A stretch of DNA of 63,017 bases, counting the filler, from Hausera hauseri (lineage: Eukaryota), in the NCBI GenBank assembly GCA_046269625.1. It is 13 parts of 13 records of this genome, joined end to end, with 100 filler letters (N's around TTAATTAATTAA, not from the genome) between each part and the next. Parts side by side here need not be neighbours in the genome. Positions count along the whole stretch, not along the records: positions 58,805 to 63,017 come from JBJURY010697104.1; 12 more parts are not named here. One strand, 5' to 3'. Below, piece by piece: positions 25,211 to 63,017 of this stretch (the first letter of the stretch is position 1; each line of letters starts with the position of its first letter). Under the pieces are notes generated by a model, which saw only the letters and a program-made list of their open reading frames with translations, was not told where the DNA came from and searched no databases. The translations under genes and the position numbers were made by a program.

Positions 25211-25652
25211 CCTGTTATACTATAGAGCACGTTCAAAACCGGAAAAAAGTGTTTCAGGATCATTTTTGGCGCTAAAACTTTAGGTAGATTGTGTATACCA
25301 TGGAGACAAATCATCCTGCGGAGGTAATTGTAACTTCGTGACATATCAACTAAAATTCGCAAGTTATTAGCGGAATTTATGACAGGTTTGTAATTAGGAT
25401 TACTTACATGCTGCGATATCAGGGGGTTCCGCTGTCAATGTCTGATGGTCAGATGGCTGATTTGTCAGCGGTGACAAGTACAATCGACGGAAACGTCAGA
25501 AGCTCTCCAGTTGTTAGGAATGGTCGAATCTTCTTTATGCTAATCCCTTGTTTAACTCGAGAACTGAGCATCATGAGGCAAATATGGACCATATGTTTAA
25601 ATGATTGAGTGTTTGTTAATGGTAAAAATATTTTGGAGACATTTAGAATATC

Positions 25653-25832
25653 CTACTCTAAAATTGGTCCTGGACAGTTTGGAATTACAATGCATAGATT
25701 AGCATTTTCTGTGACAAAATGACGGCTCATTTTAGATGAACATATAGAACCAAGTGTGCATAATGCCAGACTGACAATATACTGATTACTATGATTAAAA
25801 TCATCCTTGAGAGAATTAGGAACAAGTACATG
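25653..25832 (-). pseudogene. AP1G1: Fragment of AP-1 adaptor complex gamma subunit (gamma-adaptin N-terminal region), degraded
   Basis: HVLVPNSLKDDFNHSNQYIVSLALCTLGSICSSKMSR resembles the conserved gamma-adaptin segment (NxxKNDLNHSxQ(F/Y)xxGLALCTLG...SxEMxRD). Confidence 0.7.
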
Positions 25833-25879
25833 AGAGTAGGGGAAAAAAGAGTGTTCTGGGCCAAGTGGGGGAGTCCGCC

Positions 25880-26154
25880 CACGCATCACGTGATCCGCCC
25901 ACGCGTCACGTGATTGGTCAAGTGATCCGCCTACACGTCACGTAATATCCGCCCACGCGGCACGTGATTGGTCACGCGATGCGTGCGAAAAGTCACCAGA
26001 CATTTGTTATTCTCACGCGACATTGTCCATTATCACGTGACATTGTCTAGACTCACACGTGACATTGTCTAGACTCACACGTGACATTGTTTAGACTCAC
26101 ACGTGACATTGTCTAGACTCACGTGACATTGTCTAGACTCACTTTACATTGTCT
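25880..26154. repeat. CACGTG-rich short repeats and 22-bp tandem repeat (GTGACATTGTCTAGACTCACAC), possibly a subterminal region of a DNA element
   Basis: CCGCCCACGCGTCACGTGAT-like units about 4 times, then about 5 copies of the 22/20-bp unit running into the gap. Confidence 0.8.
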
Positions 26155-27739: not shown

Positions 27740-30330
27740 TTACTGAAGTATGGCAAAGGAAGTTGGGCCGCACATTAGCTTCTTGAATTTCCCATTTTGT
27801 GTCTTTTTGTTGTCTGTTTCATGCCTTGTGTGAACTGAAGCCTTATATTCCATATCCACTTCCAATATGTAACCCGTTTCTCCATTGGGATCCAGGTCTT
27901 GTATTCTGATGTCTTCAGGATGCTCCACTCATTTGAAATTATCATATGACAATGGAACGCTCATTGCCCAGCCATACACGTTGTTGGCATCCAAGTATGT
28001 TATATATTTGGATGGCTTTTATGGTTCATAATCTGCCATATATTTGTTGTTGGCCTCACTATATCTGAGAATGACTTGAAAGATTTCACCCCGTATTTCT
28101 TTTTCGATCATCAGGCTGATGTTTTAATCTTTCAAGACCTGGAGTCGAACACCTGTATATTCCTGGAGCTGTGAAAAAATGAGCTTGATCCAACTTGTGG
28201 CTCTGAAGCATCACTTCTCTGAAACTCTTGAATACGTCTGTTAGCGGCAGCACATCCGTTTGGAGATATGTCACTATAATCTCCGGTTGTCCTGCATTGG
28301 AATGTCTTCCAGATCTTTTGTTCATGCTTATAATCAGCATCACTAATATGTGTCTGACAGCTTGCCATAAAAATCCTCCTTGTATAGTAATGATATTTCA
28401 TCCAGCGATCCCCATGGTGTTATGTAATAATAAATGAAAACTCCTTTTATTTGACCAAGTCAAATGTACCTGGAAAGAACTTCTTTGTTTTCTTTAGTTC
28501 ATCTGATGGAAAATTCTTTACGAGGCTATCAAAAGATGAACTCATTAAACGAAACTGTTAATGAATCGGAGTATTATGTTTCCCGCATGCTTGGTGAATG
28601 TGACATATTTCTCCTTATTGTTTGAGATGACATCAATATTCCTATAGATATTGCCAAGTTCTATGACTTTGATGTGGAAATCGTTGCCACTGAGACAGTG
28701 GAAGATGAAGGGCACAAATGTTGCAGTCCTAAAGCATAAATTGCATGAATTGAATGCTACACCTCTATATTTACCTGTTACATGGCAGTCATCATGAGAC
28801 TTGTAGTTTTCCATTGTAAATGGTTTGAAACACATGTAACATGTTGTTGCACTTCTCCATTCACCTTTTCCTTTTGATGATATCACCATACTTTTAGGCT
28901 TCATTTTTTCGATCTTATGTGCCGATTCTTCCAGTCTCTCCAAAAAATGATGTGCTGCATTTGAATTCATAAATAAATATGGAACCTCGTCCATTCGCTT
29001 TGCGTACATGCAAAAGGATTACGGCTAATTACGTTTGTATGCTGTCGTATTTTTTTGTTGAGGATTTGGACTGCAACGATGAATTGGATTAAGGATAGCC
29101 TAAAAGTCACAATATTCGACAATTGGCACTTTATGAATTTTCTCATATTCTTTGAATTTAATATAATCTTTTTTGTAGAATTTCGTTCTGATGCAATGAT
29201 TGCTGTTGCAATACATTTTTTGTTCTTCAAGCCTCTGCACAGCCAGATTACCGCTGTAGTAGGATAAGCATCGTTTGCAGATTTCAGTTTTGGTAGTATG
29301 CTTTGTTATTTGGGATCTCATTAGACTTTCAAAGTTTTTTGTCCAAACAAAATGTCTCTTTTCACCATCGTCTAGCAGGAGCAGATCCCTATGATCACCT
29401 AATTCCACTTTTCACACTTTTATAGGATACAATTTATTCGTTTTTTCCACTCCAAAGATATTCATGGACATCTGGTTCACTTGTTCAAATCTTTCGATTC
29501 ATGTTTTGTAATTAAAATCGTAATTATGTTGAATATCTTGATATATTGAAACACGTGAAGCATGCTTTTGATCCTTTATGACTGCGAATTTTGAAAGAAT
29601 AAATATTTGAAGCATATGTTTTTGTCATTTTGAACATTGACACATGCCTCTTTCAGTGCAATCCATTTCAAAAGCTTTATATAATAGCTTCCTCGCATCG
29701 GGGAGAACTTGTGCACATGCACAATCAATTTATTCATTTGTGCAAGAGTCCAGCCGCTCTACTTATTCTGGCTTTCATCAGCTTCACGTATTAGTTTTGC
29801 ATGTTCCTCATGCAAACATTCTGATATATTGTTGGCTTCTAATATTGGCATGTTCTTCGTTTTGAAAGCCCTATTTGATTCTTCGTCATCAACATTAGTA
29901 AATATGGACTCTAATATTAGATTGGCTTTGACTGCTTTAAGCTCAATCAAGTTATCGTGTAGAAATCTAGCAGTTTCAATCTTTGATTAATCCAGAAAAT
30001 CATGAAGTGTAGTTCGCCCTGTTGCAACTATGACATATCGTCTCACTTTTGTTTTGAATACATGATTCTCTGGATTTCGGAACCTTTGCCATTTTGATGA
30101 AGCAATGGGATTGTTTGTGATCCATTTTAATCCCGTGTGAACAACTGGTGCTGAGGTTGTTACAGGATTTGATACATGTTGAGAAATTATATCAGTATGT
30201 TCATTAAAAATCATCTTCTTTGACTTGGATGTGAAACCATACAAATGAGCTTTATGATCATCACAAAACTGCTGCTAATCTGATCTGCTCACAATTTCAC
30301 ATCTTGGACAGTCTGTGGAATCTGTATTCA
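27740..30330 (-). pseudogene. Protein-primed family B DNA polymerase of a Maverick/Polinton, disrupted and 3'-truncated
   Basis: Motifs in order: KANLILES..AFKTKN; CKRCLSY; EYCDF (Exo I); DDCHVTGKYRGVAFNSCNL; FHCLSGNDFH; LRFINS; YLQTDVLPLTDVFKSFR; ANNKYM; YLDANNVYGWAMS (Pol motif A); GYILEVDMEY. Confidence 0.9.
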
Positions 30331-31430: not shown

Positions 31431-32659
31431 CTATGTACCTTCTCCCCACTAACCTCTTCGAGTCGATATTATTCGAAAACCACTCGATCTATTTAAATTC
31501 TAATTGCACACTTGTATAGTGTACCGTTTTTCTAATGGGTTGCACCCGGTGCCATGTGCTAATCATAAATATTGAAATTGTTGAAAAACCTATATTGATT
31601 TGAGCCCATTTGCACATGTGCACCTTCACTGTACTGTGCGCAAAACGATGTGCACTAATGTGTACTACAGATTGGCACTTAGCCCTATCGATTAGATCAA
31701 TACTGCACTGTGCAACGATCAATATGTGCAAAGTGCAAAAGTGTCATGGCAACTGTGCATAAAGGCACGTCGCCATTCACGTGCCGATCGNNNNNNNNNN
31801 NNNNNNNNNNNNNNNNNNNNNNNNNNNNNNNNNNTTAATTAATTAANNNNNNNNNNNNNNNNNNNNNNNNNNNNNNNNNNNNNNNNNNNNGACGACGAAC
31901 TTATACTTACACAGGTTGTGATCCAATATCCCGAAACTACATTATTACCAATCGAAAATCCAATGATTATTCCGGAAATGAATATTCCCCCAGGTTCCAT
32001 AGTATACGGCAAACCCCCCAAATGAACCCAAACTACAAATGACTGATTCAGCACCTAATGAAGTATGGAATGCCTTATGAAAATATGATTCACTACCATT
32101 AAATAGACGAGTAGAATGCGTACCATTACTCCTGCCACTAACAAAGGACGACGTATTCTGCTTTTCAACAGCAAGAAAGTTACTTAAAACTCTTGTAAGA
32201 GAATTAAGAAGAAAACATAGGCGAAAACAACCATATATATTAAGTAGAGATTAAAACCAATAAGCGGGAAAAAGTAATCAAAGTAACAGCAGGAATGTTC
32301 ATTAAATTTACGGATCTCAAAAGAAAAGTATTAGATGAATTAGATCTAGATTACGGACTCCTTACCGGAAAGATTCATCAGATTACTATGGAATTTGGCA
32401 CTAAGAAAAAAGAAGGAAGACCAAGAAAGTGTGATTTTAACCCAATAAACGATGATGAAGAAAATCCCAAAGAAGAAAAATCAGAAAGGCAAAGAAAGAA
32501 AAGATCTTTGTTGAGAAAACGTAGGGAACAACGAGAAATGTTAGAAGATATATTATACGACAATTTCCAGAAATTTACTATTAGTAATGATGAAAATAAA
32601 CAAACAAAAATCCTGTTACGGGAACTTCGGATCAAAGTGAAACAGATGTACCAAAGGTA

Positions 32660-33050
32660 ATATTGACAACTGATAAACTCCTAGAACAATTAATTAAGAA
32701 AACTAATCGAAATCTACTCAAGAAGATACCAACAATTACAATAATTCCATTACAATCCATAAGAGAAACTGCGAGAAATTTCTAATCGCAAATTACGAGA
32801 TTGCTACAGAAGTATAAGCTGAAAAGAGGTTTAAATAAAGCATTGACACGATTATTAAAGGAATGTGATCAAAACCGATTGTTAATGGCACCAAGATGCA
32901 TAGTGGTTAGCTTCAAAAACCAAACAGAGATCGATGCCAAGTTACTCCATATAGTAAGAGATTTAGTCCATCATATGCATAAGTCAACAAAAGAATGGGT
33001 AACCAAACAAGGAGGTTGGGATGAAATACTCAAGAAATTTAACCCCACTA
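32660..33050 (+). pseudogene. Bcl-2-like domain upstream of Env in a Gypsy-type element (degenerate copy)
   Basis: BH2-like HMHKSTKEWVTKQGGWDEILKKFNP (W...GGW at 32996-33019); BH3-like LQSIRETARNF; in frame with the signal sequence and AYDC. Confidence 0.7.
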
Positions 33051-33069
33051 CATTAATATACCACAAATA

Positions 33070-36000
33070 TACGAATATCTCAGATTGGGTAGTACAAATT
33101 ATTCACCTGCTACTATACTTGATAGCTGTGAGTATTCTGAAAACCACAAAAGCGTTAGAAGCCTATGATTGTTCCAAACCGGAAATAACAGCCCGGCTTT
33201 CACTAGTGGATGTAGGCAAATGTTAAAACGCGAATCCGATATCTGTAAAGAAAGAAGGTCCTTACTATTACAGCCTGTATCAAAGAATCAGTTATCAACA
33301 AATGCCAGTAAAGGAATGTCAACTTAATAAAGTAGTATTCGCTCATAACTGAGGCCATAATTCATGGAATTCAGAAATTATTTTACCAGTGCTACCTAAG
33401 CCCGTGACAATAACAGTTGAAAATTGTCGAAAAGCCACTGATTCAATTCATGTAGGCCTCCAACAGCCAGTACAGGCAGGCATAGGAAAACTAGTTTATT
33501 CACGTATAGTTACAGCAGGACAAATATGGCCCGGATATGGTGGAGCTTGTAAAGGAGAAAGTATGACGATAAATAGACAGAAAGAATCCGCTGCAGTACA
33601 AATAGAAGATTTTACCGTCACCATAAAGGAATATGAAGTAAATTTCGATGCAATCACAGGAAAAATGTTAACTGCACCATCCTGTACATATTCCGATGGA
33701 GTAAGTACCTTAGGAGAATCCACCCTAGTTTGGGAAAAACGGTCGTAATATGTCCATTAGCTTTCCTTAAACAAGTATCTATGTACGAAATACAAGGTGA
33801 TTTATATTACGAAGATGAATACCAAGAACTTGTACATAACCATAATATAAGTTTACCTACCCCACGAACATTAAAACACACCATTTCCCTAAAAGTTTTA
33901 ATGTCATCCAGTGACAAAGATGGAATCGTATTGGCACGTAAAGGAGCCGTATCTACCTGTGGATCAAATGCAGTTTACTCCACATCATACGAGGATCTAT
34001 TCGTAATCAACATAACTATTGCAAATGCAGGAAAGCTACCAACCGAAGATATAAAGTAATACCTATATACGAATAACAAGATAGATTATATATCATATCG
34101 AATTGTACAATATTATGGCATTGAGAGATTGTAAAATCACTCAAAAACTGAATCAGCATGACTTGATACTAGCTAGGGAATTCCCAGAAGATATTGCCTT
34201 AATTATGGGATATCGCTCGGAACATTTGGTAGAGTACAAGGTGAAATACTCCGCGTGTATCAATGCCCTCCAATAGAGGTAACTCCAATAACAACCCTAA
34301 AAGAAAATTGTACAAATGAATTAATGGTTCATTATAACGATAAAAACATAATTAAAACCGGATACGTGGACCCTGTTACTCGAAAGTTATTGTTACCTGT
34401 GGTGCCGCGGACTCGAGCGTCACCACGGTCGAACTGCATCGGGACAGCATCGTTCGAAAGAATTTTGATGGTTTTACGGAGATTTGCTCAAAAAATGTGT
34501 CCAACCTACTCCAAAATTCTTTCAATACAAAAATTCTCGATGAAATTCGTTGTTTCAAATCAAGCTGCCTGTGATTTGAGCCGTGTCGTGTGCATATCAA
34601 ACCATCAGTCAATTTTAAAAATACAAAGACGTGTACTACTCAACTAGCTGCACCATTAACACAATTTGAAAGAAATGTTCGGTAATATCCGACAAATTAC
34701 CGCAACTCGTTGACCACTTCTGGCAGTTTGTTTAATCATGGTATCAGACACAATGATATTTGACCTATTAATCGATTTTGATAGTCGAGACACCAAAACC
34801 TTAATGGTGGTGAATCATTTATAATTAAATTCTAATCCTGCAATAATGCCTTTTTGAAAAATTTAGAGTTTGATATGATAAATTTTAAAACTTTTTACAG
34901 TTGTGCTAAATAATTCGAATTAAAAAATATTGTTGGATAAAAAGAGAAGAAAAATTTCAAGAATCGAAACTAAATACGAAGCCATTCAAAAATCAGCAGT
35001 GGTAAAGCCACGTAGAAACAGATTGGCGGTGGATTTCGAAAAATTTACAGGAAAGCCTTTATATTTTATCCACATTGATTTCAAGATTTCTCTACCTATA
35101 ATTAAGTGGCTAATGATCAGAAAATAGAGCAGTTCAATTTGAATTGAACCTAGACTGAGTCACTCAACGAAACGTGTTTTACCATTTTTAAATTCCGCGT
35201 AACTTCCATTTACAATCTTATGACTATGATTTATCTGTAAGTGAATATGGGATTCAAATTTCTTTGGTGTGAACAGTTGTCTCAATTTATATATAATTAC
35301 AGTAAAATCGGATCTTCAACAACTGCAATGTTTATTTAAACTAGTTTTCAATGAACAAGAGAGACACGTCCAACGAATTTTAAACTTGACAACAGGAAAA
35401 ATTACGAATTTGAAAAAAAAATTTCTGAAACCAAAAGCCATGAAAAGTAATTTTTGGTAAGGTCTACGCCGACAGGACCAATGAAGGTAAAACATTACTT
35501 TTTTGAATACAGAGTAATATTGTTTTTTACATGGAATTAAAATGCAGAGAAATCAACAAAATAGAAATTGATAATTAATAATTACAGTTGTTGGTTGATA
35601 CAGTTTGAATAAATGATTGTTGACAGGTTTTCTGATTTTGTTGCTTGCTGGATTAATTTGTACAATTTGGATTTACATTACCTACTGAAATCAGTATTGC
35701 ACCATGTTATAAAGACTTCTATCCAGCCTTCAAGCTTAACAATGGATGATTGACCAAGACACGCCAACCAACCATGATGAACATCCCACAGACGATTAAA
35801 TTATTATCGTTGGATAAAGGTATGCAATTTAAAGTAAATATAGAACTTCCCACCAGTGGATTATATTTCTTGAAAGACCTGAAAGCAGTAAGAAAACAGG
35901 TATTATTTCAGAATGTCCGAAAAAAAGTTATCACAGAATTTGTATATACTGTTACAAAAGGATCAAATTGTGTACCTAATTATGGAATATTACTGCCAAT

Positions 36001-36207
36001 CGACCACTTAGAGAAAACAGCTGAAAAGGTCCTTTTTGACTTCTAAAATAGATTCCTTATTTTTGGTCAAGTTATATATGGAGTCTTCGGTATATCTGTT
36101 ATAATTACTACCGTAATGGTCATATTAAGACAAATAGGAGCTGCAAGAAATATAAAGAAAGTACGTGGTTGTACATGGTAAATTATGCTGGGATGCTTTC
36201 CTTCAAT
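33070..36207 (+). pseudogene. Chuvirus-like envelope glycoprotein, disrupted and split by a solo LTR
   Basis: Signal-like WVVQIIHLLLYLIAVSILKTTKA then LEAYDCSKP..LSLVDVGKC; G.CKG; CTNELMV..YVDPVTRKL; C-terminal RFLIFGQVIYGVFGISVIITTVMVIL..GCTW. Collinear with the intact copy at 59326-61170. Confidence 0.85.
34398..35677. mobile_element. Solo LTR-like insertion (1,280 bp) with 5-bp TSD TTACC
   Basis: Ends TGT...ACA; TTACC at 34393-34397 and 35678-35682; removing it restores Env as ...VTRKLLLPTEISIAPC. Confidence 0.85.
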
Positions 36208-36307: not shown

Positions 36308-39300
36308 GTAATAGAACAATCCACACCGACGATATTAATATCAGACATGCACGGGTTAAAATGTATTAGAAAGGATATGTCATCACGCTGCGATGTAGTT
36401 ATGTATACCACTAACTACGAAGCATTCTTTGTAGCAGAAACAGAAATCGATATGAAAACGTACGATTTAAAAACACAAGATGTGCGGATCGAGGATTACC
36501 TCGAAAACCGAGACGATTATTTATATTACAAAGGGCAGATCGGAATAGCGGAAATATACTACAAAATGATAAAAAATGACTGCAGATTATATACTGAAGT
36601 CATGAGAACCAAACTGGCTTTAATTTACACCAATCCAGAATTGGCATCACCGATTATACCAATGAAAGACGGTGTTTTCCGACAGGTTACCGGAGAAGTC
36701 CTATTAACCTAAGAATGCGAAATAAAAGACGTGCCGATCAACGTAGACGAAAAGAGATGTATGCAAGAATTGCCGGTCAATTACGAGAATATGCCAAGGC
36801 TAGCAGTGCTACTCACCAGAGTATTACTGGAAAATTCGACTGAACCGACAATACTGAAGCAATGCAAGACGAGTCTGGGGGAACCAATATTTAGACGCAG
36901 TGGAGCCGACTGGATAAGCCTATTAAATAGAGGTACGGCTGCAGCCCCTAGTAATCTAACGGCGACAAATCTAATGAAAGGATTATCGGATGATAAATTC
37001 GAATATACAACTAATAAAGGAATTTATAGGCCAAAAGACATAAAAACTTTTAGGCAATTTTTAGCATTTTCGCGACTGCGGACGTATGAACTGAATCGGG
37101 CCATGTCAATGGTCATGGATGACACCCGCTTTCAAGCGAAATGGGAATCGTTACTTGGTGCTAATCACTATCAAACATTTGAGGAAGATTTCTGATTTTC
37201 AAACAAGCCACATCTGGATTCTTAGCCATCTAGTTTTTAGTCCAGCCATCATCAACGGCTATGAAATATTCACATTAACATGATTTTCCTGAAAAATTTT
37301 AACTGCAATTATATCACCCTTCAGGAAAATGCTAAAGGTCTATGAGGAAAATCGATGGAAAAATGACGTAAAACGCCATGTGGGGTACTATAATTGCAAA
37401 CGACGAGGAAAGCCCTCGATTTTGTATAGACGTAAAAATAAGAAAACAGTAATACGAAAGGATGATTCAGATGATGACGTGCCTAAGGGAGTAGAAGTGA
37501 GTTTCAGAATGAAGATGAACAAGATATACTCAATGTTTATCTCGCCATTACCCATCATGCCACCAACAGCACCGATATATGAAGACGGCGACTACAAATA
37601 AATCGTATCATGTAAGTCCAAAATCTATCAAAAGCCCATTAATTATGAAGATTCTTATGAAAAAACAAAACAATACGGAGTACTACGGAAAATGAATGTT
37701 ATCAACCGAAGACGAACAGAAAACGATCACGAAATATTGTACTTAAAAAGGATACCACGTCACATAGAATCGAAATCAGCGATCTTGAAAAACCCGAAAC
37801 TGTTTGATCTCGGATTCACTACCTTAGGAACTGCTCATTGACAGTCGCGTCAGTGAGATAGCAAATAATTTATACCCGAACGGAGAATTAAGACAGTTAA
37901 GAGAAAATATCCTCTCAGCACCATAAATAACAATAAATGGACACAGAGTCTCTATTATGAAACAGTCAAAGATAGCTACGGAACAGTAGCAGAAGGGAGA
38001 CCTTTCGCGAAAATACACATCAAAGATTAAAAAGTGTAATCATTAATTGACAGAGGATTATAGAAGTCTTTTATAAAATACGAATCAATACCAACCACAT
38101 TGCGAGAACAATTATGCCCACCGCTATCGTTGGATCTTGGTAGCATAGAAGCATTTGGACAAATATAGAAGTCAAAATTTAAATGGACTCCCACTGTTAT
38201 TATGATGAGTCAAGCACTTCAACATGAATTTGCGATAATGGGCCAGTTAACAGATGATGTAGTGCTAGGTTGTTATATATTGAAACAGATACCAGGCATA
38301 GCAATCGATATGCATAACGGAAACCTAATTAAGCTCGAACGAATGAAAAGAAAAAACGTAATAAAGGAAAGGAAATCGGGCGAAGTATGGATTCCGGTAG
38401 ATAAAGACATTCCTCTCAGAATCGAAATGATAATCATCGCAAAAATTCGATAGGACAAAAATCTGTCGGTATACTTCGAGCCTCAAGAGAATATCGATCC
38501 AAACTTTATCTTTAGCAATATTCTATGTAGAGTAGTGACGGGACGAATACCAATCAGATTAGTGAATAATGCACCAATTTCCGTAAGATTGTATGCTAAC
38601 ACTACTCTGGGTCATACTCACAGAGCATCGGCGGTAACAGTAGAGGAAAAACTATACAAATGTGCTGAATTTCCACCTCACGTTGAAACCAAATTTTTTC
38701 CTGAGGCGTATGGAAAGTTCTACGAATTACTATGTAAATACCGTTTAATAATCGCACAAAATGAGGAAAACATAGGCAGAGCAAAACCTTGATATTAACA
38801 ATCTCATTAAGAGAAAACCCGGTTCGAGTGATGAAATTGGTTTAGAAGAACAGAAAATGCCCAAATGTTACCCACCTCCCCATTCATTAAGACCATAAAT
38901 AACTAAAGAGGTAGAGCGAATGTTAAAGTCCGATATAATTTGACCAAGTTACTGATCATGGTACTTACCTATTCTTATGATTAAAAAGAAAGGAACTACA
39001 AAACATCGATTTTGTATAGACTATCGGGCATTAAACACGATGATAATGAAAGACTCGTTTCCATTACCGTCAGTAAAGAAAGCTTTAGATAGACTATCAG
39101 GAGCAAAATGGTTTACCACTCTCGATTTACAATCGGGATACTGGCAAGTGGAAATCAAAGAATAAGATCGATATAAGATAGCATTTAAAACACACGATGG
39201 CGTATATGAATTTAATGTTATGCCCTTCGGCATCACCACCGGATAAGCTATTTTTACTAGAATGATATATAAAATACTTATGGGATTTGAGCATGACTTC

Positions 39301-41358
39301 ACATACCTAGATGACGTAATAATAGCATCAAAAACAGATGAAGAGCACTTAAAGGACATTGAAGATACACTCATGCAATTGGAACAAGCACGGGGCACAG
39401 ATGGGCACAGAACGCAGTGTCATACCTCGGACACATAGTTGGAGAAGGAGGATCAAAACCGGATAAATCCCTGCTAAATAAAATATCTGATTGTATGGAA
39501 CCACAGAATCAAAAAGAATTAAGACATTGGTTAGGACTATGTGTGTTTTATGCCACTTACGTGCCGGACAATTCAAAAATTAATGCGCCACTATATTGTC
39601 TACTCAAAAGAGAAACTAAATGGAGATGGATGGAAGTGGAACAAAAAACATTCAACGAAATGAAGAAAATTTTGACAAGCGAACCAGTTTTAAGATACCC
39701 TGATTTTAACCTACAATTCATCATTAAAACAGATGCAAGTAAAGAAGGTATAGGATACGAATTAGCTCAGAAACGAGAAGGCGAAGAACTAGAACATCCA
39801 GTAGCCTATGGAGGAAGCTCGTTAACAAAAGCAGAAAAAAATTACTTGGTTACCGAATTAGAAACGTTAGCCGTAAAGGAAGCACTATGACACTTTAATG
39901 TCTATGTCTATAAACAAAAGATTATAATAGTGACCGACCACAAAGCAGTTACGACATTGAAAGGACGAGCTAATAATCCAACATGTAAATTAAACCGTTG
40001 GATCGAGGAAATTTCACGATATAATATCGAATTCCAATATAAACCGGGTAACAAACACGTCGACGCCGACGCACTATCAAGGTTAAGGACAAAAACGAGT
40101 GCGATCACCATAATAAAAAACCCACAACTCGAACAAATAATTGAACAAAGAACTCTAATACTAGATAAATTACAGCAGAACAAGCTAATGTTATTCAGCA
40201 AATTATCGAGTTTGTACAAAATGACAAAATGCCAAAAGGACGACAATTGAAAAAGCATCTATAGAAACACGGACATAAATATCATGCATCGAACCAAGAT
40301 AATATCCTATATTTGCGAGCGAAAAGGAAGAAGACTAATAGTTATTCCCAATGGATTGTTCATCGAAGTACTCATGGCCGAACATGACTCATATTTAGTC
40401 GGACATATGTCTTGGAAGAAGACATTGGAAAGGATATTAAATAAATACTACTGGCCAAGTATCTATATTGATGTAAAGAAATGAGTAGGAGCGTGCAAAG
40501 TTTGCGCGACAAAACAGAAGAAAACAAAAGAGTACGTGGCAGAACTAAAACCCAAAAACGTACCAGATAGGCCCATGCAAGCCATGTCTATGGATAATGT
40601 AGAAACCTTGCCGAAAACTCACAAAAATAACAGATATATCCCAACATGCGTGGATCGACTAACGCACTTCGTTGAATTGGTGGCACTATTAGATCAAAAG
40701 GTAGAAACTTTAGCCAACGCAGTGGTAAGGAAAATTATCTCCAGATACGAACCACCAAAACAAATCCTAACGGATAGAGGAAGGAACTTCACAAGTAAAT
40801 TATTCGAAAAAATAAATAAGATATTTGAAATTGAACGATTAACCACAACCGTGAACCACCCCCTATGTAATGGAATGGTCGAGCGAATGAACAAAACAGT
40901 CATTCGTATACTATGAACAGTAGTAGCCAAAAATCAGAAGGATTGGGACGAATTCCTAGAAGGGACACAGTTCGCAATTAATACAATCCCACATCCAGCA
41001 ACAGGCTTTACACCGTTCTTTATGATGTACGGGCGAGAGGCAATCTTATCCACTGATCTAGGCGTGACACAGTAAAAAAGTAACCTCGCCGATCTACAGC
41101 AAAATTTTGCCGAAGTCTTACAGACAAGATTGCAAAAGTGTTGCAAAGTTGCATAAATATTATCACTCAAATACCAGGAACAATTTAAAAAACAATATGA
41201 TAAAAAGACTAAACCCCACAATCTGGAAAAGGGAAATTTGGTTTATATACATTACCCAGTCGCGAAAAAAGGTACGTCTTTGAAATTAACACGTGCTGGA
41301 AGAGGACCATATGAAATCATCCGCACAAGGCCAAGCACGGTCTATATTAATAAAAACG
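36308..41358 (+). mobile_element. Gypsy-type element with order Env(C-half)-PTAP linker-PR-RT-RNase H-IN, degenerate
   Basis: Env: YLENRDDYL..NDCRLYTEVMRTKLALIYTNP..QVTGEVL..CMQELPV..GIY; PTAP at 37563-37574; decayed protease (VVLGCYIL); RT RFCIDYRALN..LDLQSGYWQ..YLDD at 39304; RNase H IKTDAS..TDHKAV; integrase EHDSYLVGH..LTDRG..NGMVERMN..GPY. Confidence 0.92.
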
Positions 41359-52590: not shown

Positions 52591-54789
52591 CTTGTTTCAT
52601 TGTTCCAGCATTTGTCTAAGTATAAATATCTAGTCCATGCATAACTTACAATTTCTCAGGTTTGTGTGTTCTTTCTAAAGCGCATTCTCCACTCTCTGAT
52701 AACTGAGAGCTGAATTTGCGAACTCTATTGGGAATAGTGTCACTAAATACTTTACTAGTGAGAACAGCCCATCATATCAACAGATCTATTTTCCTGCGTA
52801 TTATAAAGATGTTCTTGTTCTTGTTTGATCTCCACATCGTCAGCTCTTCTGGATGAGCCCTTATAAGGGCTGTAGTCCTAGGAAGGACTCTGGAGTAGTT
52901 GCGCTGAGCATTCCTGCAGTCCCAGTGGTGTCTAGGAGGGTGGTCCGAGGTTTCTCAGGCTTTAGTGCAATGCTTGACCTCCTAGAAGTGATCCATTTCA
53001 ACCGGGGACCATGACGATAATCCCAACGTTGGCCAGAATTTCTTGTTTCCAGGACGCACTGCGTGGAAGTATTGAGAGGTCTTGGCCAGTAATGGTCCTT
53101 ACCCTGGCTAGATCGCGGATCGATCTCAGTCTTAGCGTCCCATTATAAAGATGTGTCCTGTTTTCCACTATTGCTACCTTTGTTCTTGCTTCATTCATTG
53201 CTTCTTGTCTGCGATAGTATTTTCTGTTCTTCTGCTACTTCTTTTATCTCTGAGGATACTTACGATTGTGGTATGTTTAGTAAAGTATAGACGTATTCTT
53301 CATTTACATAAGTTTTTCTTTCACTTCACTCGTTGTATGACCATTCTGAATTGTAAGTGATCCTTCGTTCTTAATGACACATTTTCCTCCCATCATGTTT
53401 ATAATTTCATAAAGTATTTTCATGTTGGTGTTGTATGCTGCTGTCTCTGCCTCTTCTGCTAATGTATCATTTACTGTCGTTTATCCGAATAGCATATTTT
53501 CTTTATTTCTTATTTGTGTATTTTTGTATGATGTGTTTTTCATTGGGTCTTCTGTTTTCCTATCACGAGAACACGTAATCCAGTAGACCTTCTGGTTTGT
53601 TCCATCTGTAACCACTCTGTTTTGGTCACTAAAGTGAATACACTTTTTTCCGTTTACATCACCTATACTTTCACTGTCCATTTTGTCCTCACTGTGGTCC
53701 TTGTTCTCCACACAATGAGACATCTTGTTTGAAGGCTGCATCCACTACTTCCTGCACACGCTCGGATCATCTTTCTTGCGAGTCTTCCTCTTCATTTTCT
53801 GCTGGTTCATTGCATGCTATTATAGCTAGCTTATCACGTGCTGAGTTGAACTTCCTACATATAAATGCTTTTTTTTTTTAATAAGTGATCCCCTCTATAT
53901 GAGTTTCAAAAACAGCTTGAACAGTACCCGATCTTGGGAACTTCTTGCATTCTTACAAGGTCCAATTGTATCCGTTCATTTCTAAATCTAATGCAGTTAG
54001 TTTTTCTGCTTGAATTTGTGTCCCAATATTCCAACTTCCAACTTGTAAGAATGTTTATGTGATACTGCATTATGTATAGTATCAATTACTTTGTTGTTAC
54101 AGTGGGTTCCCACTGTCGAGTTTTTGACTCCCTGGTCCTGACTTTCACAAGCGCCGTTCATACAATCAATTCATTTTCATCAACATTTATGGAATTTATC
54201 TCAGCGGACTCTGTAGCGGTTTGATTTATTACATACAGTTTGCTATACGGTCTATTAGTCCCCAGTTACAGCACGATAATGGAAATGCAGTGTACACATT
54301 TTTTTCCCGTTCCTAGAGTGCGTAATGAAAATTAATTAATGATAATAAAAATAACCATAACAGGATATTATCATTGCTGTTGTTCGTGGTGGTGGTAGTG
54401 TTGGCGTTTATGTTAATATTTATAATAAATATTCCGGCCGNNNNNNNNNNNNNNNNNNNNNNNNNNNNNNNNNNNNNNNNNNNNTTAATTAATTAANNNN
54501 NNNNNNNNNNNNNNNNNNNNNNNNNNNNNNNNNNNNNNNNCAACATTGGAACAATAGTTCCTCTTTCAGAGCCTCGCGTGAAAGATTGTGCTTCATGACT
54601 TTATCCAGAAGTTTCTCAATTGCCTCGAAGTAAGCCGCCGGTTCTGCTCCATTCATTTAGCATTTGAGTGCTTTTTTCAGATTTTCGCACAGCGTTGAGG
54701 ATCGGGCGAAAGCCTTCCGTAGTCTCTTTTGATATCCCGTTATTTTCGCATCTACTATCTCGTATCTTTCTTGTGCTTCTTTCGCCAAG

Positions 54790-57620
54790 AGACATTTGGC
54801 GAAATTTATCTGCAGGTTATGCTGGTGTAAGCGTTGAAAGATTGATATGATGTGTTCTTTGTGTTGTTTGGTTGAGAAAGAAACAATTAATATGTCGTCG
54901 ATATAGGGATGAGCATATGATAAATGGGAAAGGATAGTATCGATGTGGCGTTGAAAAGTCTGCTTAGCATTCCGTAAGCCAAAAGGCATGTACAGATATT
55001 CGTATAAGCCAAAAGGAGTAGTGACGGCTGTTTTTCTATATCCTCGGGTGCCACAGGAATTTGATGGTAGACTTTGGATAAATCAATAATAGAATAAATT
55101 GCAGTTGAGTGCAGACGGTGTAAGATATCCTTAATAAGTGGCAACGGGTATGCATCCATTATTGTCAAAGTGTTCAACTGACGATAATCACCACATGGTC
55201 GAATTGTTCCGTTCTTCTTTTTCACGACATGTAGTGGTGACGACCATTGGTATTTGGAGCGATGTACAATTCCGGAACGTTCTAGTTCTAGAAATTTGGC
55301 TTCAGCTGCCTGTCTACGACGAGGAGATAAAGGACGCACCTTTTGGCGGATAGGTCGTTCATATTGTGTCACAATGTGGTGAAAAGTGGTTTTTTCTGGT
55401 GCAAAAGACCTATCTTTTTGAATAATTCTAGAACAAGATACGCGAATAAATTGCTGCAAACTTGAAAGTGATTGTGAAAATTTTGGTTGTAGCGAGGAGG
55501 TCTTACGGGTAACTTTAGATGTATCAGTAACAGTAGCAATTCGGACGTTATTTGGTGATCGAGAATGAAGTGGTATTCGATACAGGATGGTAGTATTAAA
55601 GATGGTATTGTAGTTTGTAGTTTTATCGAAGGATTTGGCAGTGGTAACAGAATTACTTTCATTGCTGTGTAAATCCCAATCGCCAATAACATTGTTCTTT
55701 AATGATTTTATAAAACAAGGTGCCATGGTTGTAAAAAAAGGTTTGTTTAACGGGTTTTTTAATATCGGCTTTTGAGCTGCATTCACCCGTACGACAGCCG
55801 AACTTGTATCGTCGTGATCGAATCGCTCCTTATTGCGACCACTTGTTAAGCAGCGCTGTTTACAATCGACATAGAGGTTATAGTGCAAAAGAAAATCGGA
55901 TCCTAAAATGACTGTTTGGATATTGGCTACGGTAAATGTCCAGTGGAAAGTTTGAATAAATTTCGGAAGAATAAAAGAAAGCCTACATGTACCGGAAACA
56001 TGTAGTGGTTGTGCGGAAGCTGTAAATAAAGGTTTAATTTTGGATGAAGTGTGTTGAGTTACAAAGGTAAGCGGTAGTAAAAAAATCGCTGCGCCTAAAT
56101 CGATAAAAAAATTTATGTGTTGAGGTGTCGGTACGATGATGGAGACTTTTAATGTGAACACGGCGAAAGAAATTTTTCGGCTATTAGGAAGTAAAGAATG
56201 GCCTTCGCCAGTTCTCACCGAAAACTCTGGCAGTGAAGTTAGTTTTTTGAAAACGGGAAACCTGAGCGACTGCTAGAAACGAAAGTTGTGAGTTCGTCAT
56301 TTGCATGGTAGGATTTGTTTTTAAACGTGCAACCTGGGATACATTTGTGTTCATTATGTCTGAATTTTGCATGATATATGCAAATTATGTTATGAGTGTA
56401 GATTAGATAAATAATAGCTACACCCTAAACAGCATTTATTTGCTTTGTTGTTAAATTTGTTGCGATAATAACATACGAATGACCGTGTTGAAAACGATGT
56501 CCGATTTCTGGAAAAAGAACGTGTTTAATAAGGCGAGAGAGCATTCTGTCGATGTAAAGAAAAGTCATTCATTTTATCATTGATGATGTTGATTGTGTGT
56601 TAGAGTGCCGCATTTTTGGCGTGTAATTAGTTCAAATGGTGTTCGATGGATGTATGACGTTGATTGTCATCAATCGTAATAGCGGCTGATATGATGGGTT
56701 GTGATTGAATTTGTAAGACTTCGCATGCTTTATCTGCCAATTCACCCAATTTATCTAAGGCTGTAGAATTTTCAACAACGGTAAGTAAAGCCCTAATTTG
56801 AATGGGTAAGGCATTAAGGAAATATCGTCGAAGTAGATCCGGATTGTGTTCCTTGGTGGTGCCTACAGTACGTAAGTGAGCTAACGAGGTGCGTAGAAAA
56901 TCACTAGGTTTTTGTGTCCCCGTTGCGTTTTCGTGAAAGAAGCGTTGAATTATAGAGTAAATTGGTGGTTCTATCAGTTTTAACACAGCATCGAACAATT
57001 GGGTATAAGGGTCAGGGTGTTGAAAAATGTTCAGTAAGTTGTGGATTGAGGCCTTTATGGAATTTGGTACAAGGTACATTAGATTATGGGCTTTGGATAA
57101 CGAGTCTGAAATACCGTTGGACTGTAACCAGAGTTGATGGAAGTGGAGCCAAATTTTGCTAGACTTTTCATTATCTATAAAGTATTCAGTGCAGTGTGGG
57201 GTAGTATTGATAGTATTTTTGTGAGAAGAATTTGTATTGGTTAAAGTAGGTGGATGACTTGAATTGGGGTAGTACAGAATGGATTTCGATTTTGTGGTCA
57301 GCTTATCGGTGATGTCACTGGTTGATGGAGAAATCGTCCCGCCGCGGATTCTAGGATTGATATGTATACACAGATAGTTATGTGAGGCCGTGTGGGAAGT
57401 CGACTAACATGAAACCGTTGTGAGTCAAAAAGAAATCGCTGTAGGCGGAGGTATTATAAATGATAGCGTATAGTGATGTTTCGATACGTTGTCTGACATG
57501 TACTATTTGTATTAGATTATTATTAACATAAAGGTAGAGGGGAAATGATGGTAATGTACTTTAAACCGGGTAGTGTGATATATCATTTGAAGTTAAAAGA
57601 GTTGCTTTAGACGTTTCTTT
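54790..57620 (-). mobile_element. Ty3/Gypsy CsRn1-like element: gag-PR-RT, truncated after RT
   Basis: Gag GTQKPSDFLR..LLRRYFLNALP; FFIDLGAAIFLLP..ILGSDFL; RPCGDYRQLN..IDLSKVYHQIP..MPFGLRNA..PYIDDIL. Clear nucleotide homology to 6825-9171. Confidence 0.92.
56239..56248 (-). promoter_or_regulatory. -1 frameshift slippery site A AAA AAC plus gag stop
   Basis: The pol ORF (54887-56218) lies in the -1 frame relative to the TAA at 56241-56239. Confidence 0.75.
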
Positions 57621-57796
57621 TAAATATGTCCGATCTGCTGACTCACTATGGTTTATGGATCTGTAGCCGATGAATATTAAAAAAAACGACAATAACTAGA
57701 AGGGGACGGATTCTGTCCATAGTCAGAAGCTCTAGTCAGGTACACGCTGTAATCAGAAGAATAAATCGGGCCCACTTTGCTATAATGCGCCTTGAT

Positions 57797-58700
57797 TCAA
57801 CCTCGTCTCATTGCAGATATATTAATCTCAGTAGATGATTTAGTGTCGAATTTTGTAGGTTTGGCAAGGTATTCAGTGATTACCATCTCGTTTTTGCATT
57901 GTAATATGCAGCATAGTATACGCGTCTGTAGTAATGAATGATAAAATGGCAAACTTTTATGAGGTGAATGGACAGGGAAGGTGACATGAAAAGAAAACTT
58001 TAAGTAAATAAATCTTAAGTAACGACCGCAAAGGTGGGCTATGTGGTAAAGGGGTGAAGTTGTGCCAACAGCGAACATGTTAGGAATAAAAACGTATAAA
58101 AAAAAGAAAAAGGGATCGCTACTGAGAAATGAATTAAAAAAATTGTCGCCGGGCGAAAAACAATTAATGAAATATCCTACCTCATCGTGCACTGGTCTCT
58201 CCACGGTTGGCAGTAACATTTTGTGCTGTGGGTACGGCAGATCGACTTTTTCATGTCGTGTCGTCTTGTGAGCGATCTGAATACACAACGACTTTATGAA
58301 CGAACCCGCCAGTTTGTAACGTTGTCTGATTTTCATCGTATCTTACATGCTTACCGTAGTTTGACATGATCATTCTGTTTGCTCCACTCTGCAGTCTAAT
58401 AAGGATAATATCACCAGTCGACAGCAGCTGTTGTTGTTTTATCTGTTGACTGAATCTGCATCCGCGATCCATGCACCGAGTGATGACATCTGTGAAATCT
58501 ATCGGCACTTCGATTAATGCAGGATAATCGAATGGTATTTTGTGTGGCAGGTTAGTACCCCATAATGACGTCATGGAAAGTGTACACGGTTTGATGAGCT
58601 GTTTCAAAAGTTTGTCGACAAATGACAGTAAATGGTCATGAGAAAATGGCAGCAGTTCCAGCTGCAGTAGTTTCATAATGGCAGATATTTCTGCATTGGT
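57797..58700 (-). pseudogene. Unknown upstream ORF region of the CsRn1-like element, homologous to 6132-6971
   Basis: Shared PxM...PL(F/Y)H...(F/Y)LR(Y/F)I and AKPxKxxTxxSxEINxSxMRR motifs. Confidence 0.5.
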
Positions 58701-58806
58701 GTCANNNNNNNNNNNNNNNNNNNNNNNNNNNNNNNNNNNNNNNNNNNNTTAATTAATTAANNNNNNNNNNNNNNNNNNNNNNNNNNNNNNNNNNNNNNNN
58801 NNNNGA

Positions 58807-61800
58807 TTATTATTGGCAGGAACAGACGGTACCCCGGAATCGGTGGACATAGATCCATTATTAAGAACATTATTGGCTAGATTACATACGTCATTCGCCT
58901 CGTTTGACATGCAGACAATAATACCCGATGAATTATTTACAACGCTACACAACCATATGCTACGAATAAGTAGGCAATTTTATGAAAATTTAGAGGAGGA
59001 ACGAATAAATGAGCTACACGAGATGGATATCTTAGAAAAGATGTTCGCAACTGGAATTACACGTGAAAAAGCTCGGACGGCGATATCGTATCTATTATAT
59101 AAAATAATAGTGATAAACCATCAAACGCAAAACTTAGAAGAAATAGAACGGAATATACGAACGGCTGTGAAAATTTTGAAAGATACATTAGGTAATTGGG
59201 CTCAATGTAGAGGTGGGTGGCTAAGTAGTCTGATGACTAATGTAGTAAGGTCTGGAGACCGAGAAAGACCCATACAGACGCCACTTCCGACACAACCAGG
59301 TATCGCTAGGGCAGGTATGACAGGCATGTCAATGATGGAGATCATTCAAATTCTCCTAATAACATCACTGCTTATGCCAAAAGCGGTAGGTATAGTAGCG
59401 TATGACTGCTCTAAACCCAGCGAAGGTCAAAAGTACTCTTTGGTAGATTTGGAGAAATGCCCAGAAGCTGACCCAGAACAATTAACAACGACAGGTGGCC
59501 TGACATACTGGGTATACCAAGAGTCTGAGTTTATAAAAGCGAAAGTCAGGGAATGTTACGTAAAAAGATCATTTTTCTTGTTTAATTGTGCTTATTATTC
59601 GGGAAATACAGCCATAATTGAGCCTACGACACCTTTTGAGCCGATTATTATATCACGAGCAGAGTGTCAAGACGCTTTTAAGATTGGCATTATTACGATC
59701 CAAAACGCGCATATACCGGCAGTACGAAATCGAATAAAATATACCAGAATATACCGGGCAGGAAGAATAGATAAAACTGCAGAAGGTTCGTGTAAAGGAG
59801 TGGACTATGACGTAGGAGGCACTATTGCGCCTAGAACGGTAGCTATCGAAGATTATCAAATCCAGTTAAAGGAGTATGAAGTGTTGTTCGACTCACAAAC
59901 AAAATTGATGACAACTATGAGTGAGTGCGAGTACGATAACGGAGAATGTGATACTGGGGAGTCAAAAATGACATGGGAAACCCTAGCAAGCAAATGTCAA
60001 TTGACGTTATTAAAGGAAGGAAAATTTAATAAAACGGTAGGAAAATCAGCGGAGAAAGAAGCAGCAACGTATAAAGAGGGAACCAAGGAAGTAAAGATGA
60101 CGGAGGTAGCTACGATTGTGTATTCAGAAAACCCAGAAGATATGATGCGATTTAAGATCACGGGAATAGCAACTAAGTGTAATGAAGAAGTAACGAAAAC
60201 TAATTACAAGGGTATCTTTTTATCGAGAAAAGAAATACCTGGTGCAAAGACCAAGATAGATAAGAGAGATATAAAATTGACGCAATATTTCGACAATAAA
60301 ATCGATTTTCTGATCAATTATGTAAGAAAAGAAATTAGGGGTTTATATCGCGAAATAATAATGAACGAGTGCAAGTTGAATTACGAGATAATGCGCAATA
60401 AGATGGCGCTGGTGATAACAAATCCGGATATGGTAGCGCCAGTGTTACCTTTTGGTGATGGAGTTATTGGAAGAGTAATGGGCGAGATTTTAATAACAGT
60501 AGAATGTAAGAAGGTGGAAGTATCGATTAGACCTACGGAAGAATGTACAATGGAATTACCTGTTGTTTACCATTCGGAAGCACGATATGTTATGCCAGTG
60601 ACTAGGATACTTCTCGATGTTAATGTAAAGCCCACTCTGTTATACAATTGTACTTTTAATATGTCACCAATGTTTAAGATCGATAACGATAAATGGATAA
60701 GGATGCCGAAAAGAGAGCCAGTGCCTAAACCGGCGACGTTGAGTCTGATTAACTTACAAAGAAATCAGAAGTTTGAACCACTAACAGGAATATCCCAGGG
60801 AGGAATTTATACCCAACAAAATTTGGAGGACTATCGACGGATGTTATTGTTCCCACAACAAAGACAGCGAGTAATAACCGAATTGACGAGGAGAGTAATG
60901 TGGGATGGCGAAGGATCACCACAATGGGAAAACCTGATGGGTAAAGACTATTTAAAGAAGGTAACGAAAAGTATAATGGAAAAGATATGGGGAAAGTTCT
61001 TATATTTTGGTCAAGCAGCCTCCGGCTTTCTAGCGATATATTTTATTATCAGCGCCCTACGAACGGTATTTACGGCCCTAGGCAAAGCATATGGAATACA
61101 TGCTGCAGTAGGATGCTCGTGGAAGATTTTAATAGCGGTAATACCGGCGGTAGCAAGTTGCTTCTTGGCAAACCACGATGCACGATGGAAGAGGAAAATA
61201 TTAAAAAGGAGAGACATGAAAGAATCCTTGTATAGTATACCCAATGATAATGATGCGGAATATAGCCAAGTGAAGGAAAAGAAACGAGTACCCAATATTA
61301 AACACTTAATGCTGAGGAAACGGAAATCTAAGTACAGACAGAGGCTAATAACAGACCTGCCTCGTCTAGATCCTGTGGATGAATACCATGGACAAGAGTA
61401 TAACGACCAACCGTTGTTAAATCCTTCAGCTCCCCGATATGTAGTACACACAGGACTATACCCTATGCAACAAGTTCAACAGATGAGACAACAGTTGGAT
61501 GAAACTATGATCCCGTATAAACGTGAACCCACATATATTGTCAATGATAAAGATGACCGCCAACCACCGGTAAGACCCGAAATAGAAATAGAAGTGAATG
61601 GATACCCTATGATGGCTTTGTTAGATACTGGGTCAACTACGACGATAATGGGAAGAAGCCAACTACCAAAGGAATTGAAAAGGAAATTGCGACGACCGAC
61701 TACCACATTGGTGAATATAGGAGCATTTGGCACCGAAGAAGAAATTAAAACGGTTCTAGATGCCAAAATTAAGATTGGTGACCAAATTTTGAATCACACC

Positions 61801-63017
61801 ATACGAATAGCCGATAACCTTACTAACGAAATTTTAATAGGATGTGACGTATTAAATCAATTGGAAGATGCATACATTGACATGAGAACATGCCAACTTA
61901 AGACGTTCGGCGAAGACTGTAACGAAGGAATGGTCTCATTAACGAGAGACATCACGATTCCACCACGATCGGAGATGATAGTTCCCGGAAGAATAGAAAG
62001 TAGAATATTACCGGAAACTATTTATTTTGAACCATGCCCACAAGTCATGGAAAAGTACGAAGTCTTGATTGCCCCTCACGTGGATAAAGTAAGAAATGGA
62101 AAAATCCACTTACGAGTCTGTAATACAACAAATAGAGAAAAACGATTGCGAAAAGACACCAGATTGGGAAAAGTAACAATAACTGAAGAAATAATAAAAG
62201 AAGAGACCTTTTCATTGATATCAGATGTAGATAAAATAGAAAAGATGATGACAGAAAAACAGAAGAAGAAACCAAACGAAGGTAAAAGAAATAAAACTAC
62301 GAATATTGACTGGAATGAGAAATTGCAAAAATGCGAAATTTTGAGTAAGGAGGAAAAAGAGATGCTAGTTAAGTTGTTAGAAAAGAATACCAGTCGATTC
62401 GCACAAACTGATTATGATCTCGGCACCATGAAAGTAATACAACATGTTATCAAATTGAAGGATGGACAGGACAAACCAATTAAGAAGAGACCATATCGAC
62501 TGGCATATGACAAGAAGCAGGAAGCTCGTAAAATAATAAAGGAAATGAGGGAAAATAAGATAATTCGACCAAGCTGCTCACCATGGACAGCACCGGTAGT
62601 AATGGTTAAAAAGAAAGACGGAAGTATGAGATTTTGTATAGACTATAGAGCTTTGAATGAAATAACTGAGACAGACACATACCCATTGCCAAGAATCGAC
62701 GAGATTTTAGATAAATTACACGGATCAACTATATTCACAACCATTGATTTACAAAAGGGTTATTGGCAAGTGGAGGTTAAAGAAGAAGATAAGCCAAAAA
62801 CAGCCTTCTCAATTGGAGAAGGGTTATGGGAGTTTAACAGGATGCCATTTGGATTAAAGAATGGACCGCCAACTTTTCAGAGAGGAACAGAACTCCTGTT
62901 GTTAGACGCTCCACATGCCATGGTATATATAGATGACGTGATAATAGCATCACCAAATTTTCAGCAACACTTGAAGGATCTACAAGATCTCTTTGATAGA
63001 TGTGAGATAATGGGCCT
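58807..63017 (+). CDS. Uninterrupted partial polyprotein (about 1,403 aa, open at both ends): Bcl-2-like domain, signal, chuvirus-like Env, TM, PSAP, aspartic protease, Gypsy RT
   Basis: Hand translation in frame +1 found no stop. WAQCRGGW 59197-59220; signal 59326-59391; AYDC 59398-59409; TM region 60997-61170; PSAP 61423-61434; LDTGS 61621-61635; RFCIDYRALN..IDLQKGYWQ..MPFGLKN..YIDD 62926-62937. Confidence 0.93.

Follow-up and report, generated by a model that had tools for sequence, protein, structure and literature searches.

Burro (GYPSM1) is a giant planarian Ty3/gypsy element in which Gag, MATH, Ubi2/SUMO-like, BCL2-like, mononegavirus-fusion-like Env, protease, dUTPase-like and reverse transcriptase (RT) domains are encoded in one frame, as described in the accessible part of a review (PMC6431247), which in that part does not mention a signal peptide, an anchor or a topology. 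The element type and the order Bcl-2-Env(-protease) are therefore already published for Burro. Here, we analysed a stretch of 63,017 nucleotides from Hausera hauseri (NCBI GenBank assembly GCA_046269625.1), referred to as the window, one piece of which carries a Ty3/gypsy element with a Bcl-2-like domain upstream of Env and a hydrophobic segment between the two. A sequence-only reading of this DNA had proposed that the segment is both a Bcl-2 tail anchor and the signal peptide of Env, and that this dual role explains the order in which the two modules are fused. Our analysis indicates that the segment is probably the inherited signal of a gB/chuvirus-type Env, lying internally in a one-frame Gag-Env-Pol polyprotein and cut by signal peptidase. 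After this cut, the Gag-...-Bcl-2-like part on its upstream side would stay attached by its C-terminus to the endoplasmic reticulum (ER), at least for a time.

As in Burro, the BCL2-like domain of the focal element stands directly before Env and is followed by protease and RT in the same frame, although the Bcl-2 scores are weak here. Env lies in frame between Gag and Pol in both, Gag being seen not in the focal piece but in P0006, the closest relative over the focal region among the matches listed (48% identity), which has the domain order Gag, CCHC, ubiquitin-like (weak, E 0.03), Bcl-2-like, signal and Env. This ubiquitin match can be compared with the Ubi2/SUMO-like domain of Burro; the focal piece starts downstream of it. 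Env follows after 807 residues in P0006, so that this branch looks more compact than Burro, which has a size of ~4,900-5,100 amino acids (aa) and >30 kb as well as LTRs and MATH, BIR and ankyrin domains; the focal piece measures 4.2 kb, and the relative P0154 reaches 4844 aa with ankyrin repeats. A dUTPase between protease and RT gave no Pfam match in 61879-62238, whereas HHpred was used in the Burro review. The accessible parts of the literature searched contain no functional test of a Burro-type Bcl-2 domain. As cited in the accessible part of PMC13465017, a 2026 study that tested the RING-BIR region of Burro1, not Bcl-2, found this region to be anti-apoptotic, and PMC8532177 provides, as far as accessible, expression data only.

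Errantiviruses with a GAG-ENV-POL order, an HSV/gB-type ENV and predicted signals have been described from Nematoda, Bryozoa and Platyhelminthes (PMC13524379, accessible part). They share with the focal element the Env type, the order and an ectodomain placed between a predicted signal and a transmembrane helix, and by eye the ectodomain of the S. mediterranea errantivirus_1 and the focal Env have VYQES...AKVREC in common. Within the portions of its text and 7 supplements that were searched, that paper does not mention Bcl-2 or discuss in-frame processing. In flavivirus anchor C and in the core-E1 signal of hepatitis C virus (HCV), one segment anchors the preceding cytosolic protein by its C-terminus and serves the glycoprotein that follows as signal (PMC7601889, accessible part), and this use of one hydrophobic segment as anchor and signal is our working analogy for the focal segment. 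There is no homology between the systems, the upstream protein of the viruses is a capsid, and a second cut by a viral protease or by signal peptide peptidase removes the anchor there. Cellular Bcl-2 tail anchors have 17-23 hydrophobic residues, and mitochondrial targeting needs a pair of basic residues on either side (PMC2172731, accessible part). The focal product would resemble such proteins in its likely fold over BH1-BH2 and in a predicted cytosolic domain with a C-terminal membrane segment, but its anchor would be borrowed from Env, shorter, ER-inserted inside a polyprotein and C-terminal only after cleavage, and both the paired basic flanks and the NWGR motif are missing.

Origin of the hydrophobic segment

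The window consists of 13 separate pieces with linkers between them, so adjacency across a linker is not genomic; the linkers have the form N44-TTAATTAATTAA-N44 and the pieces measure 4-7 kb each. The focal piece, positions 58805-63017, is one open reading frame (ORF) of 1403 residues that is truncated at the 5' and 3' sides by the piece ends. Since the 5' end is missing (the piece begins at 58805), the Bcl-2-like domain is not a protein N-terminus; the full-length relatives P0001-3 are one-frame Gag-Env-Pol Ty3/gypsy polyproteins. The family is present in very high copy in sequencing run X1, where 19,586 contigs were matched, and also in three other runs, and its contigs cover the Bcl-2-like region, Env and Pol alike. 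In run X1, 107 of the 2261 contigs matched to 58805-59480 extend past one or other end, some of them past the 5' end.

The motifs WAQCRGGW, IIQILLI and IVAYDC begin at 59197, 59341 and 59392 in the focal ORF, the hydrophobic stretch covering 59341-59379, and their counterparts WVTKQGGW, VVQIIHL and LEAYDC begin at 32996, 33089 and 33155 in a second element on its own piece (31891-36207). The focal ORF has 40 residues between the end of GGW and the start of the hydrophobic core, and the second element has 23, in agreement with the 20-40 residues past a BH2-like motif that the sequence-only reading had given, and the small-x-small, signal peptidase-type ends that it had noted are present in both sequences (A-V-G and T-K-A, respectively). 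What had been taken for another copy is, on the other hand, a distant broken relative, with 16% identity in the Bcl-2-like domain and ~33% in Env. The distance from GGW to the predicted cut is 57 residues in the focal ORF, 45 in the second element and 45-76 across the six proteins with a Bcl-2-like domain (carriers).

With a simple signal rule, a hydrophobic 11-mer plus small residues at -3/-1, the segment was recognised in five of the five sequences tested first (the focal ORF, the second element and P0001-3), and a shuffle control (200 shuffles each for two proteins) yielded ~0.05 such clusters per 100 residues. A second cut compatible with the rule lies three residues downstream, between IVA and YDC, and the cut may fall at either position. 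The segment is the strongest hydrophobic stretch upstream of the Env transmembrane region. Its focal core has a KD11 of 2.56 and an uncharged run of 13, compared to medians of 2.59 and 15 for N-terminal signals, and includes Thr, Ser, Gln and Pro residues; across carriers the uncharged run is 12-18 residues long. One Lys follows the core in the focal ORF, and no basic residue is found within the ten residues before it.

In a survey of relatives, 153 proteins were examined, namely the best 150 of 1254 HMMER matches and P0001-3. An Env start could be located in 116, and the other 37, which have no such motif, were set aside. In 96 of the 116 proteins, Env begins with the segment as an N-terminal signal; all of these start with Met, the median length is 20 residues and the rule holds in 66. 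The segment is internal in 20 proteins, 18 of which conform to the rule, and a Bcl-2-like domain is found in four of these internal cases (P0004, P0005, P0006 and P0015). These four are themselves part of the profile with which the domain was scored, and independent support comes from a phmmer match that passes through the domain in P0004-6 and from the 73% identity between P0015 and the domain of the second element. In the remaining 16, the domain profile gave E 0.13 at best or no score, and nine of them have 365-982 residues upstream of the segment. Pro at -4 to -6 is present in 11 of the 20 internal cases, carriers as well as non-carriers. Because the segment is N-terminal in standalone Envs and internal in proteins without a Bcl-2-like domain, it is, judged by homology, Env's own inherited signal peptide and not a Bcl-2 anchor imported with the domain. 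A joint arrival of segment and Bcl-2 was rejected, as non-carriers have the same segment. The occurrence of this segment at the same place in 16 of 20 internal cases without the domain also leaves the dual role unsupported as an explanation of the fusion order; one of these Bcl-2-free proteins, P0001, even has IIQILLI in common with the focal signal.

An AT-hook-like motif (GRP with basic residues on both sides) was observed in the Gag-Env spacer of P0006, P0008, P0009 and P0154, lying upstream of the cut by 223 residues in the carrier P0006 and by 96-189 residues in the non-carriers. Taken as a marker, the motif shows that non-carriers have no Bcl-2-like block in the stretch from the motif to the signal. 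The P0001 spacer had looked ubiquitin-like by eye, but this reading found no support on checking.

Env trees were built from 22 rows (careful) and 16 rows (quick) of long polyproteins with a few standalone Envs, omitting P0030, which has no motif, and both broken elements of the window. The five carriers all fall inside a 10-row group (support 93/96 in the 22-row tree and 97 in the 16-row tree), and five non-carriers are nested among them on starred branches of that group. At least three changes are required on the starred branches to account for the carriers, and a single Bcl-2-only clade is rejected (p-AU 9e-6). The outer Gag-Env-Pol polyprotein lineages are without the domain. On the simplest reading, a Gag-Env-Pol polyprotein with an internal signal would have come first, followed by one gain and several losses of the Bcl-2-like domain; several gains, or recombination, may be an alternative history. 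Under either history, as far as these comparisons tell, the order of Env after an upstream partner does not need Bcl-2.

Identity and constraint of the Bcl-2-like domain

The domain upstream of the segment is likely a divergent Bcl-2 domain, judged from profiles and models that score below curated cut-offs. Within its W-x4-GGW BH2 motif, GGW is invariant in six of six carriers, the first W being replaced by Y in P0005. NWGR is absent at the BH1 place, which is occupied by TREK, SRNK, TFTK, TDSK or DQNR instead. NWGR is needed for BH3 binding, so that ordinary BH3 binding is doubtful here. The focal domain matches PF00452 over profile positions 11-100 of 100 with E 0.002 and 18.9 bits, the cut-off being 31.4, and the whole P0005 protein reaches 20.1 bits, likewise below it. 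PF00452 is matched by five of five members of the family alignment A5, all below the cut-off and with a best E of 2e-5, and no other Pfam family is matched by more than one of them. When a family profile was compared with the PDB, 60 of the 60 rows listed were Bcl-xL/Bcl-2 entries (best E 0.005), and another family profile search gave such entries in 54 of 60 rows listed (best E 0.002), beneath one designed repeat protein. AlphaFold2 with a six-row alignment produced a model with a pLDDT of 64-81 over residues 41-130, for which all 46 rows listed by Foldseek belong to the Bcl-2 family, with probability up to 0.98 and E 0.04 or worse. In VIA, 12 of the top 20 matches are Bcl-2-family proteins with Z 5-6, tied with unrelated bundles, and the best (Z 6.2, rmsd 4.8) has 111 residues aligned to BHRF1. 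A single-sequence structure prediction reached a pLDDT of 38.5, and Foldseek gave no match with that model; a feature look-up in the ESM Atlas (best 0.87) returned bacterial clusters and no Bcl-2 cluster, and word-based searches for homologs of the Bcl-2-like region yielded P0002 alone, through Env, or no match.

One might also read the domain as a helical bundle with a GGW arising by chance, a question that is independent of how the segment is processed. The scores below the Pfam cut-off, the missing NWGR, the ESM Atlas result, the best Foldseek E of 0.04, the tie of the best VIA Z of 6.2 with unrelated bundles and the designed repeat protein at the top of one profile search would all fit such a bundle. 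It seems unlikely to us, however, since Bcl-2 is the only Pfam family matched by more than one member, since Bcl-2-family proteins make up the rows listed by one profile search and by Foldseek and a majority of the VIA top 20, and since the domain occupies the same place as the BCL2-like domain published for Burro.

Four runs gave 153 variable sites, and constraint was assessed on a selected subset of these, the 40 with the best support. In the Bcl-2-like domain, 23 of the 24 listed sites are synonymous (neutral expectation 0.34, p 3e-10), compared to four of four in the signal, seven of seven in Env and one of five in the linker. The Bcl-2-like domain is under purifying selection.

Proposed processing of the polyprotein and use of the segment

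Our processing model builds on what is observed, namely that the segment is present, is homologous to N-terminal Env signals and also occurs without Bcl-2, together with the domain order and the constraint on the domain. Following established ER biology, the ribosome would make Gag and the cargo domains in the cytosol, and the internal signal would then open translocation with its N-side staying cytosolic. Env would enter the lumen and be freed by signal peptidase between AVG and IVA or three residues later, a cleavage that is likely according to the simple rule and homology. The Env transmembrane helix would bring protease, RT, RNase H and integrase back to the cytosol; such a return helix was not found in two of the 16 scanned proteins, P0006, which ends earlier, and P0023, which has none above threshold. 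With one Env return helix, Pol would stay cytosolic. The upstream product would be a Gag-...-Bcl-2-like protein with the signal at its C-terminus in tail-anchor orientation, which in P0006 would comprise 807 residues upstream of the cut. It is predicted to be located at the ER and not at mitochondria; mitochondrial targeting of the anchor was considered and rejected, because the paired basic flanks are missing in the focal ORF. The core is short, with 13 uncharged residues, and the tether may be transient; intramembrane cleavage or the protease of the element could later remove this ER-type anchor, similar to the second cut in flaviviruses and HCV. The Bcl-2-like domain likely entered later as cargo in the Gag-Env spacer, where it would have met a ready-made anchor, and would have been lost again in several lineages. 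The topology put forward in the sequence-only reading therefore holds in part: as a prediction, cleavage would leave the upstream part cytosolic, held at its C-terminus and oriented like a Bcl-2 tail anchor, whereas the product, judged from P0006, would be a Gag-ubiquitin-like-Bcl-2-anchor protein at the ER and not free Bcl-2, unless it is trimmed.

The dual-role topology is a sound prediction with viral precedent. The literature searched contains no statement of a dual anchor and signal role, although the primary Burro papers may already describe the segment. What we add is the processing model, in which a one-frame Gag-Env-Pol polyprotein would cross the ER membrane twice, like the flavivirus polyprotein, and in which Gag and its cargo would be tethered to the membrane through the first crossing. 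If this tether lasts and is needed, a retroelement would employ a captured Bcl-2 domain without having captured its anchor; if it is transient, the segment would be an ordinary internal signal peptide. We think it probable that the ER tether of the Bcl-2 part is a by-product of the Env signal.

A stronger dual role, in which the order was fixed because Bcl-2 requires a C-terminal anchor and in which the segment persists as a stable and functional tail anchor, agrees with the position of the Bcl-2-like domain directly before the signal in six of six carriers and in Burro, with the predicted orientation, with the purifying selection on the domain and with the location of Bcl-2 itself on the ER among other membranes (PMC2172731, accessible part). 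We nevertheless regard it as rather improbable, as segment and order occur without Bcl-2, the core in three carriers has only 12-13 uncharged residues with helix-breaking or polar residues within, the linker to the cut varies in length between the 45 and 76 residues given above, the focal ORF is without paired basic flanks and the adjacency may be one inherited event. A different possibility is that Env has its own spliced or subgenomic RNA, or that its translation starts internally at a cluster of Met codons, the segment then working as an ordinary N-terminal signal. Four in-frame Mets in the focal ORF would yield signals of 19-25 residues, and the env of classical gypsy is spliced. The sequence-only reading had named Env production from this cluster as the outcome that would speak against it; the Mets are present in the focal ORF, but they are not conserved, which weakens this alternative. 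As a conserved start the cluster was rejected, since the closest relative P0006, P0004, P0015 and the second element are without these Mets. Eight of the 20 internal cases (including P0006, P0004 and P0015) as well as the second element have no Met 15-45 residues upstream, and a Met in the other 12 is about what chance would give, as estimated from a Met content of ~2.5%. No pyrimidine-rich acceptor was found in either element, an observation that carries little weight for AT-rich introns, the frame is open and constrained across the junction, and no recurring splice-like skip was seen at DNA contig joints. Taken together, we consider such a separate origin of Env unlikely. Finally, the segment could be an uncleaved signal-anchor, with Env as a luminal loop between two membrane helices that is freed by cytosolic cuts only. 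Two flanking helices are predicted for some gB-type errantivirus Envs (PMC13524379, accessible part), and P0004 does not conform to the rule at the homologous site; we hold this to be very unlikely in view of the short core and the conserved Pro/small-x-small end, which is the same end as that before the mature start in standalone Envs.

Several points weigh against an inherited Env signal that is cut by signal peptidase and tethers the Bcl-2 part as a by-product. Support for cleavage comes from the simple rule and homology, the carrier P0004 departs from the rule at the homologous site (T-N-M) and conforms to it three residues later, and some gB-type ectodomains are flanked by two predicted transmembrane helices with no signal (PMC13524379, accessible part). 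Several non-carriers have short upstream sequences of 69-234 residues. The Env tree has a midpoint root with the standalone Envs on the other side and a long P0015 branch, and recombination between elements, if it occurred, may have given the upstream region a different tree. Assignment of the domain to Bcl-2 falls below curated cut-offs. Moreover, the Bcl-2-like domain is found directly before the signal in all six carriers, with other cargo (ubiquitin-like, AT-hook-like) farther upstream, and this adjacency fits selection for an anchor as well as a single insertion. Along these lines, one might speculate, tentatively and with more doubt than confidence, that a lineage of Env-bearing retrotransposons has turned its Env signal peptide into a lasting tail anchor that holds a captured Bcl-2 domain without NWGR at the ER. 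Each synthesis of Env would then plant a death or stress regulator, possibly joined to Gag, at the assembly membrane, and selection would maintain the domain in carriers, with sister lineages losing it.

A second signal-like segment after integrase was observed in P0002 (2435-2453 and 2577-2595), P0003 (2457-2475), P0008, P0010, P0018 and P0154. Behind it lies a small domain, which is Ig-like in P0003, and often a further membrane helix, and the chain may thread the ER twice. In the window, an integrase frame at 16838-18211 ends in a hydrophobic stretch at ~18020-18090.

Features of the window and of related proteins

The coordinates of the focal, second and third elements and of their parts are given in Table 1. 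The Monjiviricetes fusion glycoprotein match of the focal ORF spans residues 176-812. No solved structure matched the Env ectodomain by sequence, viral contigs contained no relatives of the element, and metagenome contigs one short Env fragment.

Table 1. Positions of element features along the window
Feature	Position	Strand	Basis or remark
Ty3/gypsy Gag-Env-Pol element, single frame of 1403 aa: Bcl-2-like, signal, Env, protease, RT	58807..63015	+	ORF, Pfam
Likely divergent Bcl-2-fold domain, core 58942-59220	58807..59250	+	first helix perhaps removed by piece end
BH1-equivalent position (MFATGITREKAR)	59041..59076	+	alignments to BOK and Bcl-xL; NWGR not kept
BH2-like motif WAQCRGGW	59197..59220	+	GGW invariant
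Proline-rich flexible linker	59239..59331	+	length varies among relatives; weakly constrained, 1/5 listed sites synonymous
Four in-frame Met codons (59317, 59326, 59332, 59335), not conserved	59317..59337	+	19-25 residues before predicted cut
Predicted internal Env signal peptide: 13-residue uncharged core, Pro at -5, A-V-G at -3 to -1	59341..59391	+	predicted cut 59391/59392, alternative after 59400
Env ectodomain, gB/chuvirus-type (class III) fusion glycoprotein, predicted luminal	59392..61020	+	Pfam PF24664 E 2e-89; 14 Cys
Env transmembrane helix, predicted return to cytosol	61024..61080	+	one strong segment 530-555 residues past cut in 14/16 scanned proteins
Second hydrophobic stretch with central Pro, probably non-spanning	61114..61170	+	above threshold in focal ORF and P0033 only
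Aspartic protease, in frame behind Env	61573..61866	+	PF00077 E 2e-9
Reverse transcriptase, truncated by piece end	62605..63006	+	PF00078 E 8e-25
Second element, broken: Bcl-2-like domain (BH2-like 32996-33019), signal core 33086-33139, predicted cut 33154/33155, Env start	32651..33223	+	~70% identical to open relative P0015
Third element, broken: Env C-terminal half, protease, RT, RNase H, integrase, same order; signal region beyond piece	36308..41358	+	Pfam

The Env of the second element is split by ~1.3 kb of unrelated sequence at 34399-35677. Three related gypsy-type elements without Env are found at 4931-9171, 21176-26154 and 54541-58704, with a DNA identity of 65-76%. A long degenerate 15-base tandem repeat with open His/Asp/Phe-rich frames on both strands occupies 9272-15958. 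On the minus strand, an endonuclease VII-like fragment (Pfam E 1e-4) lies at 28548-29018, and the region 3081-3542 resembles Polinton-type proteins by eye, with no Pfam match.

Several tandem aspartic-protease-like domains follow Env in P0154 (4844 aa), P0009, P0001 and P0004. P0154 has up to 7 such stretches, in addition to ankyrin repeats and a C2H2 zinc finger. In P0108, three Ig domains precede a gB-type Env in one frame, and this Env is perhaps a host-captured or fused one.

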